DNA from: Escherichia coli
Lineage (GTDB): Bacteria > Pseudomonadota > Gammaproteobacteria > Enterobacterales > Enterobacteriaceae
Length of the DNA stretch: 64,000 nt
Direction: 5' to 3' (one strand)
NCBI RefSeq assembly: GCF_003334255.1
Contig: NZ_QOWU01000012.1
This document shows positions 59,107-64,000 of the stretch, piece after piece. Each line of letters begins with the position of its first letter. The stretch's first letter is position 1. Position numbers and translations under genes: made by a program. The notes under the pieces are model-generated. The model had not been told where the DNA came from and ran no database searches. It saw nothing but the letters and a program-made list of their open reading frames with translations.

Positions 59107-59339
59107 TGAGATCCCGTTATTTTTATCAATTTTTGTTGCTATCCGATCGCAAAAAAGCCACGTCATATGATCAGATAATTCTGATAATGATAGACGCTAT
59201 TTAACACTTCACACGGTTTGTATACGGAAAAGCATTTTGCTTTTTGTATTCAATTTAGACAGAATTTTATTAATCATTTCAGGGTAATGGGGTGATGAGA
59301 TGTTGCGTAACAGGGCCAGAAGGCTAGACTACAAAATAA

Positions 59340-60344
<1,005 letters not shown>

Positions 60345-60390
60345 CAAAAGCAATTTTTCCGGCTGTCTGTATACAAAAACGCCGCAAAGT

Positions 60391-60404
60391 TTGAGCGAAG
60401 TCAA
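60391..60404. promoter_or_regulatory. FNR box of the fnrS promoter (TTGAGCGAAGTCAA)
   Basis: Matches TTGAT-N4-ATCAA at 8 of 10 positions. It is centred about 42 nt upstream of the fnrS 5' end, which is class II FNR geometry. Confidence 0.7.
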
Positions 60405-60439
60405 TAAACTCTCTACCCATTCAGGGCAATATCTCTCTT

Positions 60440-60561
60440 GCAGGTGAATGCAACGTCAAGCGATGGGCGTTGCGCTCCATATTGTCTTACTTCCTTTTTT
60501 GAATTACTGCATAGCACAATTGATTCGTACGACGCCGACTTTGATGAGTCGGCTTTTTTTT
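60440..60561 (+). ncRNA. fnrS: FnrS small regulatory RNA, 122 nt
   Basis: GCAGGTGAATGCAACGTCAAGCGATGGGCGTTGCGCTCCATATTGTCTTACTTCC...GCCGACTTTGATGAGTCGGCTTTTTTTT matches my memory of FnrS and ends in a terminator hairpin plus eight T residues. Its zntB/dbpA intergenic position is the same as in K-12. Confidence 0.88.
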
Positions 60562-60618
60562 GCCTGTTATTTATCAGCGTCTACCCTTTAAGAGTCCACC
60601 CAATGACCGGAGGGAAAT

Positions 60619-60792
60619 ATGACGACACTTATTTATTTGCAAATTCCTGTCCCTGAACCGATTCCTGGCGATCCTGTTCCAGTGCCCGATCCGATCCCTC
60701 GCCCGCAACCCATGCCTGACCCACCACCCGATGAAGAACCGATTAAATTGTCGCATCGTGAGCGTAGATCTGCGAGGATACGCGCCTGCTAA
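60619..60792 (+). CDS. 57-codon proline-rich small ORF immediately upstream of dbpA
   Basis: My translation is MTTLIYLQIPVPEPIPGDPVPVPDPIPRPQPMPDPPPDEEPIKLSHRERRSARIRAC. GGAGG lies 5 nt upstream of the ATG. The ORF is below the 60-aa cut-off of the track, and coding status is unproven. Confidence 0.5.
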   Translation: MTTLIYLQIPVPEPIPGDPVPVPDPIPRPQPMPDPPPDEEPIKLSHRERRSARIRAC

Positions 60793-60821
60793 CTTTGCGT
60801 CGATGACCACGAGAATAGATT

Positions 60822-62195
60822 GTGACCGCTTTTTCTACCCTGAATGTTTTGCCTCCCGCCCAACTCACGAACCTTAATGAGTTGGGTTATTTAACCATGA
60901 CGCCGGTGCAGGCCGCCGCGCTTCCGGCGATCCTTGCCGGAAAAGATGTTCGCGTGCAGGCGAAAACCGGCAGCGGCAAAACGGCGGCTTTTGGCCTCGG
61001 CTTGTTACAGCAAATTGATGCGTCGCTATTTCAGACCCAGGCTTTAGTGCTGTGTCCTACGCGTGAACTGGCGGATCAGGTGGCTGGTGAATTGCGTCGG
61101 CTGGCGCGTTTTCTGCCAAATACCAAAATTTTGACGTTGTGCGGTGGTCAACCGTTCGGTATGCAGCGTGATTCGTTGCAACATGCGCCGCATATTATCG
61201 TGGCAACGCCGGGTCGTTTGCTGGATCACTTGCAAAAAGGCACGGTATCACTGGATGCGCTGAATACTTTGGTGATGGATGAGGCCGACCGCATGCTGGA
61301 TATGGGATTTAGCGATGCCATTGATGATGTCATCCGTTTTGCGCCTGCATCTCGACAGACGCTTCTGTTTTCGGCAACCTGGCCGGAAGCCATCGCCGCA
61401 ATCAGCGGACGAGTGCAACGCGATCCTTTGGCGATTGAAATTGACTCAACAGATGCTTTGCCACCCATTGAACAACAATTTTATGAGACATCCAGTAAAG
61501 GCAAAATTCCTCTGTTGCAACGGTTATTAAGCTTGCATCAGCCATCCTCTTGTGTGGTGTTTTGCAATACCAAAAAAGATTGCCAGGCTGTCTGCGACGC
61601 GCTGAATGAAGTAGGGCAAAGTGCATTGTCGTTACACGGCGATCTGGAGCAACGCGATCGCGATCAGACCCTGGTACGTTTTGCTAACGGTAGCGCCCGT
61701 GTACTGGTTGCGACTGATGTTGCTGCGCGCGGTCTGGATATTAAATCGCTTGAGCTGGTGGTGAACTTTGAGCTGGCGTGGGACCCTGAAGTTCATGTAC
61801 ATCGCATCGGTCGTACAGCTCGTGCAGGAAATAGCGGTCTGGCGATCAGTTTCTGTGCTCCGGAAGAAGCACAGCGGGCCAATATCATTTCTGACATGTT
61901 GCAGATAAAACTTAACTGGCAAACGCCGCCAGCTAATAGTTCCATTGTGCCGCTGGAAGCAGAAATGGCAACGTTGTGTATCGATGGCGGGAAAAAAGCC
62001 AAAATGCGCCCGGGTGATGTTTTAGGTGCACTGACAGGAGATATCGGGCTTGATGGCGCAGATATTGGCAAAATCGCCGTGCATCCGGCGCATGTCTATG
62101 TCGCGGTCCGTCAGGCTGTTGCTCATAAAGCATGGAAACAGTTACAGGGCGGGAAGATTAAAGGAAAAACGTGCCGGGTGCGGTTATTAAAATAA
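60822..62195 (+). CDS. dbpA: ATP-dependent DEAD-box RNA helicase DbpA (23S rRNA hairpin 92 specific)
   Basis: 457-codon ORF with a GTG start and the motifs AKTGSGKT, DEAD, SAT and HRIGRTAR. Recognised as DbpA. Confidence 0.96.
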   Translation: MTAFSTLNVLPPAQLTNLNELGYLTMTPVQAAALPAILAGKDVRVQAKTGSGKTAAFGLGLLQQIDASLFQTQALVLCPTRELADQVAGELRRLARFLPNTKILTLCGGQPFGMQRDSLQHAPHIIVATPGRLLDHLQKGTVSLDALNTLVMDEADRMLDMGFSDAIDDVIRFAPASRQTLLFSATWPEAIAAISGRVQRDPLAIEIDSTDALPPIEQQFYETSSKGKIPLLQRLLSLHQPSSCVVFCNTKKDCQAVCDALNEVGQSALSLHGDLEQRDRDQTLVRFANGSARVLVATDVAARGLDIKSLELVVNFELAWDPEVHVHRIGRTARAGNSGLAISFCAPEEAQRANIISDMLQIKLNWQTPPANSSIVPLEAEMATLCIDGGKKAKMRPGDVLGALTGDIGLDGADIGKIAVHPAHVYVAVRQAVAHKAWKQLQGGKIKGKTCRVRLLK

Positions 62196-62323: not shown

Positions 62324-63259
62324 TTATTTCACTTCAACCACATTCAGCCGTAACTCATCCAACTGATTTTCATCTTCTTCTGGCTGCCAGCCCGCCGGTT
62401 GTAGTGGGATCTCTTCGCGATCAAACGCCAGATCACCCCCGTTAACCACTTCAGAACCGTGGGTAATGCCTTTGAAATCGAACAGGTTGGTATCGCACAG
62501 ATGCGACGGCACCACATTCTGCATCGCGCTGAACATCGTCTCGATACGCCCTGGATAACGTTTATCCCAGTCACGCAACATGTCAGCAATCACCTGACGT
62601 TGCAGGTTAGGCTGTGAACCGCACAGGTTGCACGGAATAATCGGGAACGCTTTTGCATCGGCAAATCGCTGAATATCTTTCTCGCGGCAGTAGGCCAGCG
62701 GACGAATAACGATATGTTTGCCATCATCGCTCATCAGTTTCGGAGGCATACCTTTCATCTTGCCGCCGTAGAACATATTTAAGAACAACGTTTGCAGGAT
62801 ATCGTCACGATGGTGGCCCAACGCGATCTTCGTCGCCCCCAGTTCCGTTGCGGTACGATAAAGGATACCGCGACGAAGGCGAGAACACAGTGAGCAAGTG
62901 GTTTTGCCCTCTGGAATCTTCTCTTTCACGATACCGTAAGTGTTCTCTTCGACAATCTTGTACTCAACGCCCAGCTTTTCAAGATACTCGGGCAGAACGT
63001 GTTCCGGGAAGCCCGGTTGCTTTTGATCGAGGTTAACAGCTACCAGCGAAAAATTGATTGGCGCGCTTTGCTGCAAATTGCGCAGAATCTCCAGCATGGT
63101 ATAGCTGTCTTTACCCCCGGAGAGGCAAACCATGATGCGATCGCCTTCTTCAATCATATTGAAGTCAGCAATGGCTTCGCCCACGTTACGACGCAGACGT
63201 TTTTGTAATTTGTTCAGGTTGTATTGTTCTTTCTTTGTAACTTGTTGATTTTCTGGCAT
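62324..63259 (-). CDS. ttcA: tRNA 2-thiocytidine(32) synthetase (PP-loop ATPase)
   Basis: ORF track 62324..63289. The ATG at 63259 ([24 protein letters not shown]) gives 311 aa. The PP-loop SGGKDS and CxxC motifs are present. Confidence 0.93.
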
Positions 63260-63541
63260 TATATTTTTCTCAAGACCCTTCAGGGGCATATAAGAGGCAA
63301 ATTTTAGTAAAGTACTTACCCAATGTTAAGCGAAAAATATGTAGTTTCTCTTAGTTGAGCATCTTTAAATCGCTGCGTAAGTATCTTAACATTGTTGTTA
63401 ACGTCTATAGTTATTTCACTGATACATGAGTTTAAATTAAAATGTGTTAAAATATTTATTTGGTTTAAGATGATTTTTCTTTATTATGTAGCGGGATTTA
63501 TATCCCATTGTAAAGAAAAGTTGACATTTATTGGGGGTAAC

Positions 63542-63928
63542 GTGAGCGATATTCTGTCATGGATTGAGGTTGGTAAACTTTCAGCTGAAAGGGATGATAA
63601 TCTTGTACATTACTTCTTTGATAATGGGGTGCTTCAAAGCGTAATTAATACTCCATCATCTTTTTTAATTCTTGGAAGAAAAGGTGCTGGTAAAACAGCT
63701 CTTTTTCGTTATCTAACAAATAATCCCAGACAATATCTAAAAGAGAATGAAGTATTAGTATCTTTATCTTTTGAAGACTACAATTGGCGAGTTCATTCTC
63801 TGCTCAGTAATGAATATGCTGCTGAGTCATTAGCATATAAACAGTCTTGGAAATTTGTAATTTTAGTTGAAGTTATTAAGGCTTACTTAAAATATTTAGA
63901 AGAAAAAAGATTAACAATACCTAGGTAA
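63542..63928 (+). pseudogene. 5' fragment (127 native codons) of an unrecognised P-loop NTPase gene, truncated by IS1
   Basis: ORF track 63392..63928. The likely start is GTG at 63542 (GGGGG 6 nt upstream), reading (M)SDILSWIEVGKLSAERDDNLVHYFFDNGVLQSVINTPSSFLILGRKGAGKTALFRYL, with Walker A GRKGAGKT at residues 45-52. The frame is closed by a TAA that lies inside the IS1 terminal repeat. The sequence is AT-rich. Confidence 0.7.
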
Positions 63929-64000
63929 TGACTCCAACTTATTGATAGTGTTTTATGTTCAGATAATGCCCGATGACTTTGTCATGCAGCTCCACCGATT
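63924..64000 (-). mobile_element. insB: IS1, right-end inverted repeat and 3' end of insB; the element continues beyond the window
   Basis: GGTAATGACTCCAACTTATTGATAGTGTTTTATGTTCAGATAATGCCCGATGACTTTGTCATGCAGCTCCACCGATT is the reverse complement of the IS1 3' terminus (...AATCGGTGGAGCTGCATGACAAAGTCATCGGGCATTATCTGAACATAAAACACTATCAATAAGTTGGAGTCATTACC) as I remember it. Confidence 0.93.

Follow-up and report, generated by a model that had tools for sequence, protein, structure and literature searches.

In this study, we believe that ynaL, which lies between the small RNA gene fnrS and the helicase gene dbpA of Escherichia coli, is probably a free-standing small-protein gene and that it doubles as the cistron upstream of dbpA in the E. 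coli clade, where any cis effect on dbpA would be a side effect. The DNA analysed, referred to below as the window, is one whole stretch of 64,000 nt. The preliminary description of this DNA had offered two roles for the open reading frame (ORF), a leader peptide or a free-standing small protein. Of these, the small-protein role has the better support, because ynaL is kept where dbpA is not adjacent and because the tagged protein accumulates in vivo (PMC6001520).

Identification of ynaL and its product

The following features of the window were used to place the gene:
60440-60561, plus strand: fnrS sRNA gene with its intrinsic terminator (Rfam RF01796, K-12 b4699)
60609-60613, plus strand: Shine-Dalgarno (SD) sequence GGAGG of ynaL, 5 nt before the ATG, read from the sequence
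60619-60792, plus strand: ynaL coding sequence, 57 codons and TAA (60790-60792), from RefSeq annotation and Pfam PF23677
60793-60821, plus strand: ynaL-dbpA spacer of 29 nt, with the weak SD-like CGAGAA at 60810-60815
60822-62195, plus strand: dbpA, DEAD-box helicase gene with a GTG start, from the ORF and annotation; the downstream cistron

The ORF at 60619-60792 is the known and genuinely translated small-protein gene ynaL, not a new gene. RefSeq lists it as K-12 b4743, "proline-rich small protein YnaL", and uses the same name in sampled E. coli genomes. Family membership was judged by a full-length PF23677 match above the gathering score together with a position downstream of zntB and fnrS, and both were found: the match scored 136.9 bits against a cut-off of 27, with residues 1-57 on profile positions 1-57. 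The window protein is identical in sequence to the K-12 product and occupies the same fnrS-dbpA position. Compared with K-12 MG1655, 219 mismatches were counted in 4401 nt; the window thus represents a non-K-12 strain of the known family (PF23677, b4743), without differences in the coding sequence and with a stronger SD (GGAGGG before the ATG, against AGAGGG in K-12). The form (T/C)GGAGG is kept in most genera, and weaker forms are the K-12 AGAGGG, AAAGGG in some other Escherichia and GGGAG in the Klebsiella/Raoultella group. YnaL was detected in 2018 by immunoblotting of a chromosomal SPA-tag fusion and by tetracycline ribosome profiling (VanOrsdel et al. 2018, PMC6001520), and the gene has been in the K-12 annotation and Pfam since that description.

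The immediate surroundings agreed with what had been described before. The ATG at 60619 follows GGAGG by 5 nt, the TAA ends 29 nt upstream of the dbpA GTG at 60822, and the SD-like GAGAA of dbpA is seen as part of CGAGAA. FnrS matched RF01796 with 134.8 bits at 60440-60557; its terminator consists of a hairpin at 60534-60553 and a T-run ending at 60561, which leaves 57 nt between the T-run and the ATG. The predicted sRNA C0343, once placed in this spacer according to the preliminary description, was not recovered: no Rfam family, C0343 included, matched between fnrS and dbpA, and the scan of the fnrS-dbpA spacer returned FnrS alone, even at E <= 10.

The translation matched exactly the 57 residues quoted earlier, with 16 prolines at positions 10, 12, 14, 16, 19, 21, 23, 25, 27, 29, 31, 33, 35, 36, 37 and 41. 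The near-perfect X-Pro alternation was borne out with a single phase slip at G17-D18, and the PPP run lies between D34 and D38. Residues 10-41 hold seven Asp/Glu against one Arg, and the charge of the whole protein, counted on the sequence, is about -1. In the AlphaFold model, the chain is extended and lacks secondary structure (pTM 0.22; local confidence highest over residues 21-40). Reading this predicted chain, we would describe the core as a rod of the polyproline-II type; the predicted structure had no fold usable for a structure search.

Prolines alternating in this way are also found in the polyproline spacer of TonB and in proline-rich antimicrobial peptides (PrAMPs), and YnaL contains the tripeptide PRP at residues 27-29. 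A relation to TonB was rejected, as Pfam TonB_N (PF16031) gave E = 0.68 with 11 bits against 33, and NCBIfam NF008084 gave 20.8 against 315 bits. PrAMPs are strongly cationic, whereas the YnaL core is acidic. The earlier suggestion of a PRP-type peptide that occupies the exit tunnel was dropped, the core charge being of the wrong sign.

Conservation of the proline-rich core

60658-60738, plus strand: proline-rich core of YnaL, codons 14-40 (PIPGDPVPVPDPIPRPQPMPDPPPDEE), with the pattern of peptide-level purifying selection

In total, 80 loci with ynaL upstream of dbpA were collected, of which one was cut by a contig end. The ORF, with its SD and ATG, was intact in 79 of the 79 assessable loci, covering about 15 genera. 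Its length ranges from 43 to 63 codons across relatives, and length changes are confined to the variable N-terminus and the C-terminal end. For 22 core codons compared among 12 genera, the mean pN was 0.139, the mean pS was 0.689 and the median dN/dS was 0.13; the pS of the core equals that of dbpA. Synonymous sites in the core are saturated while the amino acids are kept, and most positions use all four proline codons. This pattern indicates that the core is under purifying selection at the peptide level, and the selected part is the acidic X-Pro repeat (..DPVPxPDPIPRPQPMPDPPP..). DEEPIK, which follows PPP, is conserved as strongly as the residues before it. Codon-level conservation, which the preliminary description had named as a check, showed a coding-type substitution pattern, and the frame disruption in close relatives that it had considered was not seen.

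These results bear on the reading that the ORF is spurious or decaying, having arisen by chance in a C-rich spacer and encoding no product under selection. The gene is small and compositionally biased, and according to the citing passage in PMC6001520, a mass-spectrometry study found zero peptides for any of the small proteins of that paper. However, the frame is intact at every assessable locus and also in Erwiniaceae, dN/dS is low over saturated synonymous sites, the SD is conserved, and the protein was detected by both tag and ribosome profiling. We consider this reading already refuted because of the conservation pattern, and the chance that it holds is negligible. The SPA tag on which the immunoblot relied may stabilise a peptide. 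An overlapping ORF in the +1 frame (60731-60877) was also rejected; it is a by-product, because species that have GAC in place of GAT lack its ATG.

Gene order and upstream signals

60560-60587, plus strand: candidate sigma-70 promoter of ynaL (-35 TTGCCT at 60560-60565, N16, -10 TACCCT at 60582-60587)

Three gene orders were found. In the Escherichia/Salmonella/Citrobacter/Enterobacter/Klebsiella clade, dbpA stands directly behind ynaL, and in the 80 loci ynaL immediately precedes dbpA on the same strand. In Mixta, Phytobacter, Scandinavium and two further loci (L090 and L091), zntB-fnrS-ynaL is followed by a convergent ttcA, and no dbpA was called within about 2.5 kb downstream. In Erwinia, zntB-fnrS-ynaL is followed by ttcA and then by dbpA; there, a terminator-like hairpin comes after ynaL, ttcA has a TATAAT promoter-like site, and a terminator-like site past ttcA and a candidate -10 (TACACT) precede dbpA, which itself has a weak GAGAG and a GTG start. 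The constant upstream neighbour in all three orders is fnrS, and FnrS lies directly 5' of ynaL in 7 of 7 checked loci without a directly downstream dbpA.

The -35-like hexamer of ynaL overlaps the end of the FnrS terminator T-run. A -10-like hexamer stands exactly 16 nt past it in 75 of about 80 distinct loci, as TACCCT or TACGCT in 73 of these 75, while the spacer sequence between the hexamers is variable. The homologous Erwinia site, TTGCCA-17-TATGCT, was found independently by the promoter scan; the E. coli site scores below the scan threshold. From this conservation we infer that TTGCCT-N16-TACCCT is ynaL's own promoter.

The promoter-like site, the SD and the proline-rich core are all kept in ynaL loci without a directly downstream dbpA. 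Such loci have their own conserved C-terminus, DPPPH(R/M), with another DPPP two codons ahead of the stop, so that selection may act on polyproline as such. It is conceivable that dbpA was recently deleted from the loci that lack it, but the distinct conserved C-terminus of these loci is common to Erwiniaceae and Enterobacteriaceae genera. Judged from these sequence comparisons, the acidic X-Pro core predates the direct linkage to dbpA. Because relatives keep ynaL without dbpA directly behind it, ynaL is not simply a dbpA leader peptide.

The polyproline motif and a possible leader function

60721-60729, plus strand: PPP, codons 35-37 (CCA CCA CCC) within DPPPD, a predicted EF-P-dependent stall site

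PPP was present in 169 of 181 cluster representatives (93%) and PP in 176 of 181, and Asp always precedes PPP in the aligned loci. In otherwise intact ynaL genes, the motif is replaced by DPSPD, DPPQ, DPPS or DPPA, and PL also occurs. DPSPD, which has no consecutive prolines, was found in a Citrobacter cluster (P0060, 185 contigs) and in E. albertii. Studies have shown that Asp before PPP promotes stalling and that the strong context is XPPPX with D, R, K, E or Q preceding (PMC4176338). The motif that the preliminary description had pointed to is present: D34-P35-P36-P37-D38 of YnaL has the strong XPPPX context, and its EF-P dependence is a prediction.

The preliminary description had further suggested that such a peptide could be a leader. 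As a dedicated leader, ynaL would sense EF-P or peptidyl-transferase capacity, and the speed of the ribosome at DPPPD would set dbpA translation or mRNA survival. Such a role would suit the co-oriented position directly upstream of dbpA in the 80 loci, the GTG start and weak SD of dbpA, the lack of a detected terminator or sigma-70-like promoter between the two genes, and the invariant dbpA-linked nucleotide blocks at the junction described below. About 18 conserved residues precede PPP, which is within the range of the known length of the ribosomal exit tunnel. DPPP with its preceding, stall-promoting Asp (PMC4176338) is widespread in the representatives, the second DPPP near the stop of members without dbpA may mean that polyproline is selected, and proline codons in leader ORFs are known to respond to EF-P (PMC6460261, PMC5021804).

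Against this, ynaL is under the same selection where nothing co-oriented, or a terminator-like hairpin, comes next, so that it is not inherited only with its target as a stall leader of the SecM, TnaC or MgtL/MgtP type would be. The DPSPD lineages do without consecutive prolines, and the ynaL stop varies in position between 63 nt before the dbpA start and 50 nt after it. Nor was an alternative structure, covariation or sequestration of the start site detected that the position of a ribosome could control. By standard footprint geometry, a ribosome at PPP would cover roughly to 60740, and therefore 60750-60755, the sole conserved pairing partner of the dbpA start, would not be reached. In addition, the residues after PPP are as conserved as those before it. 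We regard a dedicated EF-P or peptidyl-transferase sensor as unlikely, and the dedicated leader as a whole as decidedly improbable on this analysis. What stands of the leader idea is the set of dbpA linkage signals in the E. coli clade, where a cis effect of ynaL on dbpA is plausible.

Among known systems, Salmonella mgtL and mgtP are leader ORFs whose proline codons respond to EF-P or prolyl-tRNA (PMC6460261, PMC5299641). Like them, ynaL is short, is translated, contains proline codons and lies ahead of a co-oriented gene, whose expression could change with EF-P-dependent ribosome speed. Unlike them, ynaL also occurs without its target, shows no switch in place of their defined alternative RNA structures, is much longer, and is conserved as a peptide over its whole core. 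SecM-secA and MifM-yidC2 share with ynaL-dbpA a conserved segment of tunnel length ending at a proline site and a poorly initiating cistron downstream. In contrast, the predicted YnaL stall covers nothing that pairs with the dbpA start, the ynaL-dbpA spacing is not conserved, and some ynaL members have no downstream gene. EF-P has also been shown to keep transcription and translation coupled at polyproline motifs (Elgamal, Artsimovitch and Ibba 2016, PMC5021804). The E. coli locus resembles the configuration in which EF-P loss causes premature termination, namely XPPPX in the first cistron, C-rich RNA and a downstream gene that looks promoterless; the ynaL locus is not named in PMC5021804 or its text supplementary files. 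The literature searched contained no ynaL-dbpA link beyond PMC6001520, and the one paper found on DbpA and EF-P together in E. coli, a growth-phase proteomics study, does not connect them.

The ynaL-dbpA junction

60739-60756, plus strand: invariant block A, CCG ATT AAA TTG TCG CAT, codons 41-46 (PIKLSH)
60766-60786, plus strand: invariant block B, AGA TCT GCG AGG ATA CGC GCC, codons 50-56 (RSARIRA)

Where dbpA directly adjoins, the last approximately 50 nt of ynaL are invariant at every codon position. The synonymous positions of block A are 94-100% identical among 77 distinct loci, and they have diverged in L091, which lacks dbpA (CCGTATAAACTATCGCGG). Block B, in which the codons AGA, AGG and AUA are rare and GAGGA is SD-like, shows 90-100% identity at all three codon positions. 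It is intact downstream of earlier TAG or TAA stops of ynaL in several separate genus groups (for example L017, L041, L058, L069, L070 and L074) and is absent from 7 of 7 checked loci without a directly downstream dbpA. In the spacer, CGAGA is invariant in the alignment of dbpA loci. A basic tail, noted in the preliminary description, is present, but it is largely a by-product: the constraint is mostly at the nucleotide level and linked to dbpA, because the invariance holds where ynaL stops earlier.

The signals between the genes were then compared. The scan of 60300-60950 found no terminator and no sigma-70-like promoter between ynaL and dbpA, which are co-oriented, and manual comparison of blocks A and B with consensus sequences gave no resemblance to sigma-E, sigma-32, sigma-28 or sigma-54 sites. 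The distances from the ynaL stop to the dbpA start were -50, 14, 19, 23, 27-30 and 57-63 nt across genera; over this range of -50 to +63 nt, there is no conserved overlap or short fixed distance of the kind expected from translational coupling. The ratio of C to G over 60640-60759 is about 2:1.

RNA structure hiding the dbpA start was not supported. The E. coli minimum free energy fold pairs GUCGCA (60750-60755) with the GUG region, but the single-sequence fold of the junction had a z-score of 0.03, RNAalifold gave one invariant 6-bp helix at -3.8 kcal/mol with zero covariation, and in 11 genera the opening energy of the dbpA start did not exceed that of controls with shuffled upstream sequence. 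Two further structures, a block B hairpin (UGCG-AGGAUA-CGCG) and a pairing between blocks A and B, were rejected, as C-to-A and A-to-G variants in Kosakonia/Pseudescherichia break both without compensation. A YnaL-DbpA frameshift fusion is blocked by an in-frame TAG 6 nt upstream of the dbpA GTG. Imitation of rRNA or base pairing with it, hairpin 92 (the DbpA target) included, was rejected, as the shared matches were 7-8-mers only (E > 5). A CsrA-type site at the junction was likewise set aside.

The junction can also be read as that of two unrelated neighbours, with YnaL acting in trans and dbpA run by its own signals in the 3' end of ynaL. Blocks A and B would then be a non-consensus promoter, an operator or an mRNA-stability element, and translation of ynaL would be irrelevant to dbpA. 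Whether or not ynaL is translated through them, the blocks are conserved at the nucleotide level, and they occur only together with dbpA. Truncated ynaL ORFs stop 57-63 nt before the GTG, a distance at which reinitiation would be inefficient. Compared with shuffled upstream sequence, the native sequence is not predicted to make the dbpA start region less accessible, and Erwinia dbpA, with its weak SD and GTG, is by gene order translated without an upstream ORF. On the other side stand the results of the promoter scan and of the manual sigma comparison. Moreover, if transcription starts at the ynaL promoter-like site, ynaL ribosomes must affect Rho access at the C-rich stretch. We consider this reading unlikely, with a modest chance of being correct. 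Blocks A and B may act as a non-consensus internal promoter of dbpA, and in that case the operon and the cis effect in our preferred explanation would lose weight.

Proposed role of ynaL

We propose that ynaL would be an old self-contained unit: it has a promoter-like site where the FnrS terminator ends, then a strong SD and an ORF of 43-63 codons. Peptide-level selection and independence from dbpA suggest that YnaL works in trans by binding a partner. In the E. coli clade, ynaL would be the promoter-proximal cistron of a probable ynaL-dbpA mRNA, and its last approximately 50 nt appear to have been taken over by nucleotide-level signals for dbpA expression. In this clade, dbpA is probably influenced in cis by the ribosomes moving through ynaL, which are predicted to require EF-P to pass DPPPD. 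Two routes seem likely: ynaL ribosomes may shield the C-rich leader from Rho, and terminating ynaL ribosomes may be delivered near the weak dbpA GTG. Such a cis effect would be a by-effect of gene order, not the reason why ynaL exists.

A stronger version would hold that, in Escherichia, Salmonella, Enterobacter and Klebsiella, the stand-alone ynaL was captured as a dbpA leader, so that passage through DPPPD, limited by EF-P or peptidyl transfer, and blocks A and B together set the amount of DbpA. We give this a small chance. If true, it would be a feedback from the catalytic quality of the ribosome to a 50S assembly factor, DbpA being a helicase that remodels the peptidyl-transferase region.

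Models of ynaL must explain an acidic X-Pro core that appears to be selected as a peptide and older than the dbpA linkage, a constant place just past the FnrS terminator, and, at the ynaL-dbpA junction, a separate element that is invariant in nucleotide sequence. If ynaL translation does not gate dbpA, YnaL is another conserved small protein without a partner. If it does, it would join a very small number of known controls on DEAD-box assembly factors of bacteria, and EF-P status would be linked to 50S maturation.

Identity and signals of the ORF

The 57-codon ORF ahead of dbpA is a real feature, but it is the already known gene ynaL. The features of its 5' side and start are as follows.

Features around the ynaL start in the window
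60440-60557, + strand: FnrS (Rfam RF01796, 134.8 bits), its T-run ending at 60561, 57 nt ahead of the ynaL ATG
60560-60587, + strand: candidate ynaL promoter, TTGCCT (60560-60565), N16, TACCCT (60582-60587), conserved between the FnrS T-run and the SD
60609-60613, + strand: ynaL SD GGAGG, read directly, 5 bases ahead of the ATG
60619-60792, + strand: ynaL CDS, 57 codons, from sequence reading and the ORF list, with TAA at 60790-60792
60810-60815, + strand: weak CGAGAA before dbpA, read directly
60822, + strand: dbpA GTG start, 29 nt beyond the ynaL TAA

Direct reading agreed with the preliminary description on the GGAGG with its 5-nt gap before the ATG at 60619, on the position just past the FnrS terminator, and on the stop 29 nt ahead of a dbpA start with weak SD-like sequence. 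The translated product likewise had the 16 prolines, the X-Pro alternation (which slips phase once) and, inside it, the Asp-flanked PPP that had been described. The predicted sRNA C0343, once placed in this spacer, was not recovered, since the Rfam search of the fnrS-dbpA spacer gave FnrS as the sole family even at E <= 10.

Whether K-12 annotation lists the ORF had been left as a question, and it does (b4743, YP_009518775.1). The product matched Pfam PF23677 "YnaL-like" at 136.9 bits (cut-off 27). A 501-nt query around ynaL was present in 5393 of 5426 complete E. coli genomes, and "ynaL: proline-rich small protein YnaL" was annotated under it in 29 of the 30 matches listed. Exactly this sequence was listed between fnrS and dbpA by VanOrsdel et al. 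2018, who detected YnaL through a chromosomal SPA tag, noted ynaL as an unidentified positive in tetracycline-inhibited ribosome profiling, and remarked on a possible operon with dbpA (PMC6001520). Apart from that paper, the literature search found nothing tying ynaL to dbpA, EF-P or a function.

The window is not identical to K-12 MG1655 (219 mismatches over 4401 nt), and coordinates aligned to this diverged genome would place the left boundary of the cryptic Rac prophage, with the beginning of intR, at about 63210-64000, just past ttcA. The ynaL SD is also polymorphic at 60609: the window and strain 7/2 have GGAGGG, K-12 MG1655 carries AGAGGG, and some other Escherichia species carry AAAGGG. 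Judged from these sequences, the strength of ynaL initiation probably differs from strain to strain.

Upstream of the SD, the -35 hexamer TTGCCT overlaps the end of the FnrS terminator's T-run. In 75 of about 80 distinct loci the -35-like hexamer is followed, after exactly 16 nt of variable spacer sequence, by a -10-like hexamer, which reads TACCCT or TACGCT in 73 of those 75. The E. coli -10 hexamer has only 3/6 matches and the site falls under the scan threshold; the Erwinia counterpart, TTGCCA-17-TATGCT, was picked up by the promoter scan unaided. We infer that TTGCCT-N16-TACCCT may be the ynaL promoter, and its position would imply a transcription start about 35 nt past the FnrS end.

Conservation of ynaL ahead of dbpA

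dbpA loci were collected from 80 species, one locus from each, with no regard to ynaL. An intact homologous ORF with an SD-like sequence and ATG preceded dbpA in 79 of them, the 80th being cut by a contig end, so the reading frame was intact in all 79 assessable loci. The ORFs were 44-62 codons long, apart from 84-codon forms running into dbpA, and the changes were confined to the variable N-terminus and the C-terminal end. In the Klebsiella oxytoca group (loci L049, L052 and L056), the usual stop is gone and the 84-codon ORF extends 50 nt into dbpA, out of frame with it.

In a codon table of 77 distinct sequences, codons 14-40 (60658-60738) keep their amino acids with synonymous sites saturated and all four Pro codons used. 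For 22 core codons in 12 genera, mean pN was 0.139 against a mean pS of 0.689, with a median dN/dS of 0.13, and the pS of the core equalled that of dbpA. This coding-type pattern shows that the core is under peptide-level purifying selection; that the ORF is spurious is, beside it, extremely improbable.

ynaL without adjoining dbpA

Searched with a profile, 1.84 billion cluster representatives yielded just 33 YnaL clusters, and the family is therefore narrow. The search exposed members with another C-terminus, ...DPxPxPIxDPPPH(R/M). Mixta, Phytobacter diazotrophicus, Scandinavium and two further loci have zntB-fnrS-ynaL followed by convergent ttcA, with no dbpA called within about 2.5 kb downstream. 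In Erwinia the order is zntB-fnrS-ynaL, ttcA, dbpA, all in one orientation, with a TATAAT promoter-like site at ttcA, a terminator-like site after ttcA, a candidate -10 TACACT ahead of dbpA, and a similar weak GAGAG and GTG at dbpA. At one of these Erwinia loci (L088), a GC-rich inverted repeat and five T's right after ynaL were read manually, at a place where the scan listed no such site.

fnrS was directly upstream of ynaL in 7/7 loci checked without dbpA directly downstream. In all three gene orders ynaL follows fnrS with no gene in between, at 32-99 nt past the terminator T-run (window 60440-60792; loci L083, L085, L086, L088, L090, L091 and L093). Its constant partner is thus the FNR-dependent sRNA gene fnrS, together with zntB, and not dbpA. 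Because ynaL loci exist without dbpA directly downstream, ynaL predates and is independent of the immediate dbpA linkage.

YnaL homologues in Erwinia, Mixta and Phytobacter (proteins P0137, P0139, P0140, P0145 and P0146; loci L083-L094) end in DPPPH(R/M) and a stop, which places a second DPPP two codons ahead of termination; several such homologues have a degenerate first motif (DPSPD, DPPF, DPPD). On the zntB side of the window, a 15-codon ORF at 59300-59347, annotated in K-12 as ynaN (b4773), terminates 13 nt upstream of the zntB start; it could act as a leader for this zinc transporter gene.

Invariant blocks at the ynaL-dbpA junction

Invariant stretches at the junction
60739-60756, + strand: block A, CCG ATT AAA TTG TCG CAT, codons 41-46, all three codon positions essentially invariant
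60766-60786, + strand: block B, AGA TCT GCG AGG ATA CGC GCC, codons 50-56, all three codon positions essentially invariant
60810-60814 and 60820-60835, + strand: further invariant stretches beside the blocks

The invariance of both blocks spans about 15 genera. An earlier stop (TAG or TAA, codons 48-51) terminates ynaL ahead of block B in several separate groups (an Enterobacter hormaechei-like group, Lelliottia, Huaxiibacter, Pseudescherichia and Enterobacter sp. kpr-6), and block B is unchanged there. The basic tail of the preliminary description, RSARIRAC, is thus present and conserved, but it largely reflects nucleotide constraint and not YnaL. In the 7 loci checked without dbpA directly downstream, the blocks are missing or degenerate at synonymous sites; at L091 YnaL still ends ..PYKLSRV, but block A has diverged at its synonymous positions. 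On this comparison the blocks travel with dbpA, and they look like a previously undescribed dbpA cis element. Three codons of block B, AGA, AGG and AUA, are rare ones, and the block also includes an SD-like GAGGA.

Other identities for the blocks gained no support: a promoter (promoter scan), a known RNA family (Rfam search), a conserved RNA structure (consensus fold), rRNA-identical or complementary sequence, hairpin 92 included, and an alternative reading frame. A CsrA-type site here would be a tentative lead. A 48-codon +1-frame ORF (60731-60877) crosses the junction; its ATG is absent in species with GAC for GAT at the Asp38 codon, and the invariant blocks account for its apparent conservation.

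Relationship between ynaL and dbpA

The scan found no terminator and no sigma-70-like promoter in the ynaL-dbpA interval. Together with the GTG start and weak SD of dbpA, the constrained junction, the DPPPD motif and a C-rich stretch (60640-60759, with C:G about 2:1, a composition that would suit Rho loading if the RNA were untranslated), this makes a cis link in the E. coli clade plausible. DPPPD is predicted to be a strong context for EF-P dependence (PMC4176338), EF-P preserves transcription-translation coupling at such polyproline motifs (PMC5021804), and the mgtL leader contains proline codons that respond to EF-P (PMC6460261).

The leader-peptide proposal thus holds as far as a plausible cis influence. 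Its stronger form, a dedicated sensor of EF-P or peptidyl-transferase capacity, we consider unlikely. ynaL occurs without the downstream target, and PPP, present in 169/181 YnaL representatives, is replaced by DPSPD, DPPQ, DPPS, DPPA or EPPL in otherwise intact genes, including those of E. albertii and a Citrobacter cluster seen on 185 contigs. The distance from ynaL stop to dbpA start varies from -50 to +63 nt. The E. coli fold has z = 0.03, the consensus fold keeps just one invariant 6-bp helix without covariation, and the predicted opening cost of the dbpA start region is not above shuffled-upstream controls in 11 genera. By standard footprint geometry, a PPP-held ribosome would cover roughly to 60740, short of 60750-60755, the sole conserved pairing partner of the dbpA start.

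Two independent neighbours, with a dbpA element lying inside the ynaL 3' end, would suit blocks that travel with dbpA; we hold this to be a minority possibility, though a better one than the sensor.

The AlphaFold model of YnaL was an extended chain with no secondary structure (pTM 0.22) and its top local confidence over residues 21-40; the N-terminus is variable. Matches to TonB were compositional and far under the cut-off. Core residues 10-41 hold 7 Asp/Glu against 1 Arg by manual count, and this acidic core differs from proline-rich antimicrobial peptides, which are cationic.

We believe that a free-standing ynaL gene that secondarily affects dbpA in cis is the best-supported reading, and a somewhat probable one; the suggestion of a free-standing small protein fared best, given ynaL loci without dbpA directly downstream and the promoter-like site of its own. 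ynaL would then be a small proline-rich protein gene, transcribed from that putative promoter and in existence before dbpA came to lie next to it. ynaL and dbpA probably share an mRNA in the E. coli clade, with ynaL as the leading cistron, and dbpA control sequences would overlap the 3' end of ynaL. Translation of ynaL may plausibly influence dbpA in cis as a secondary role, and if it does, EF-P would therefore do so too.
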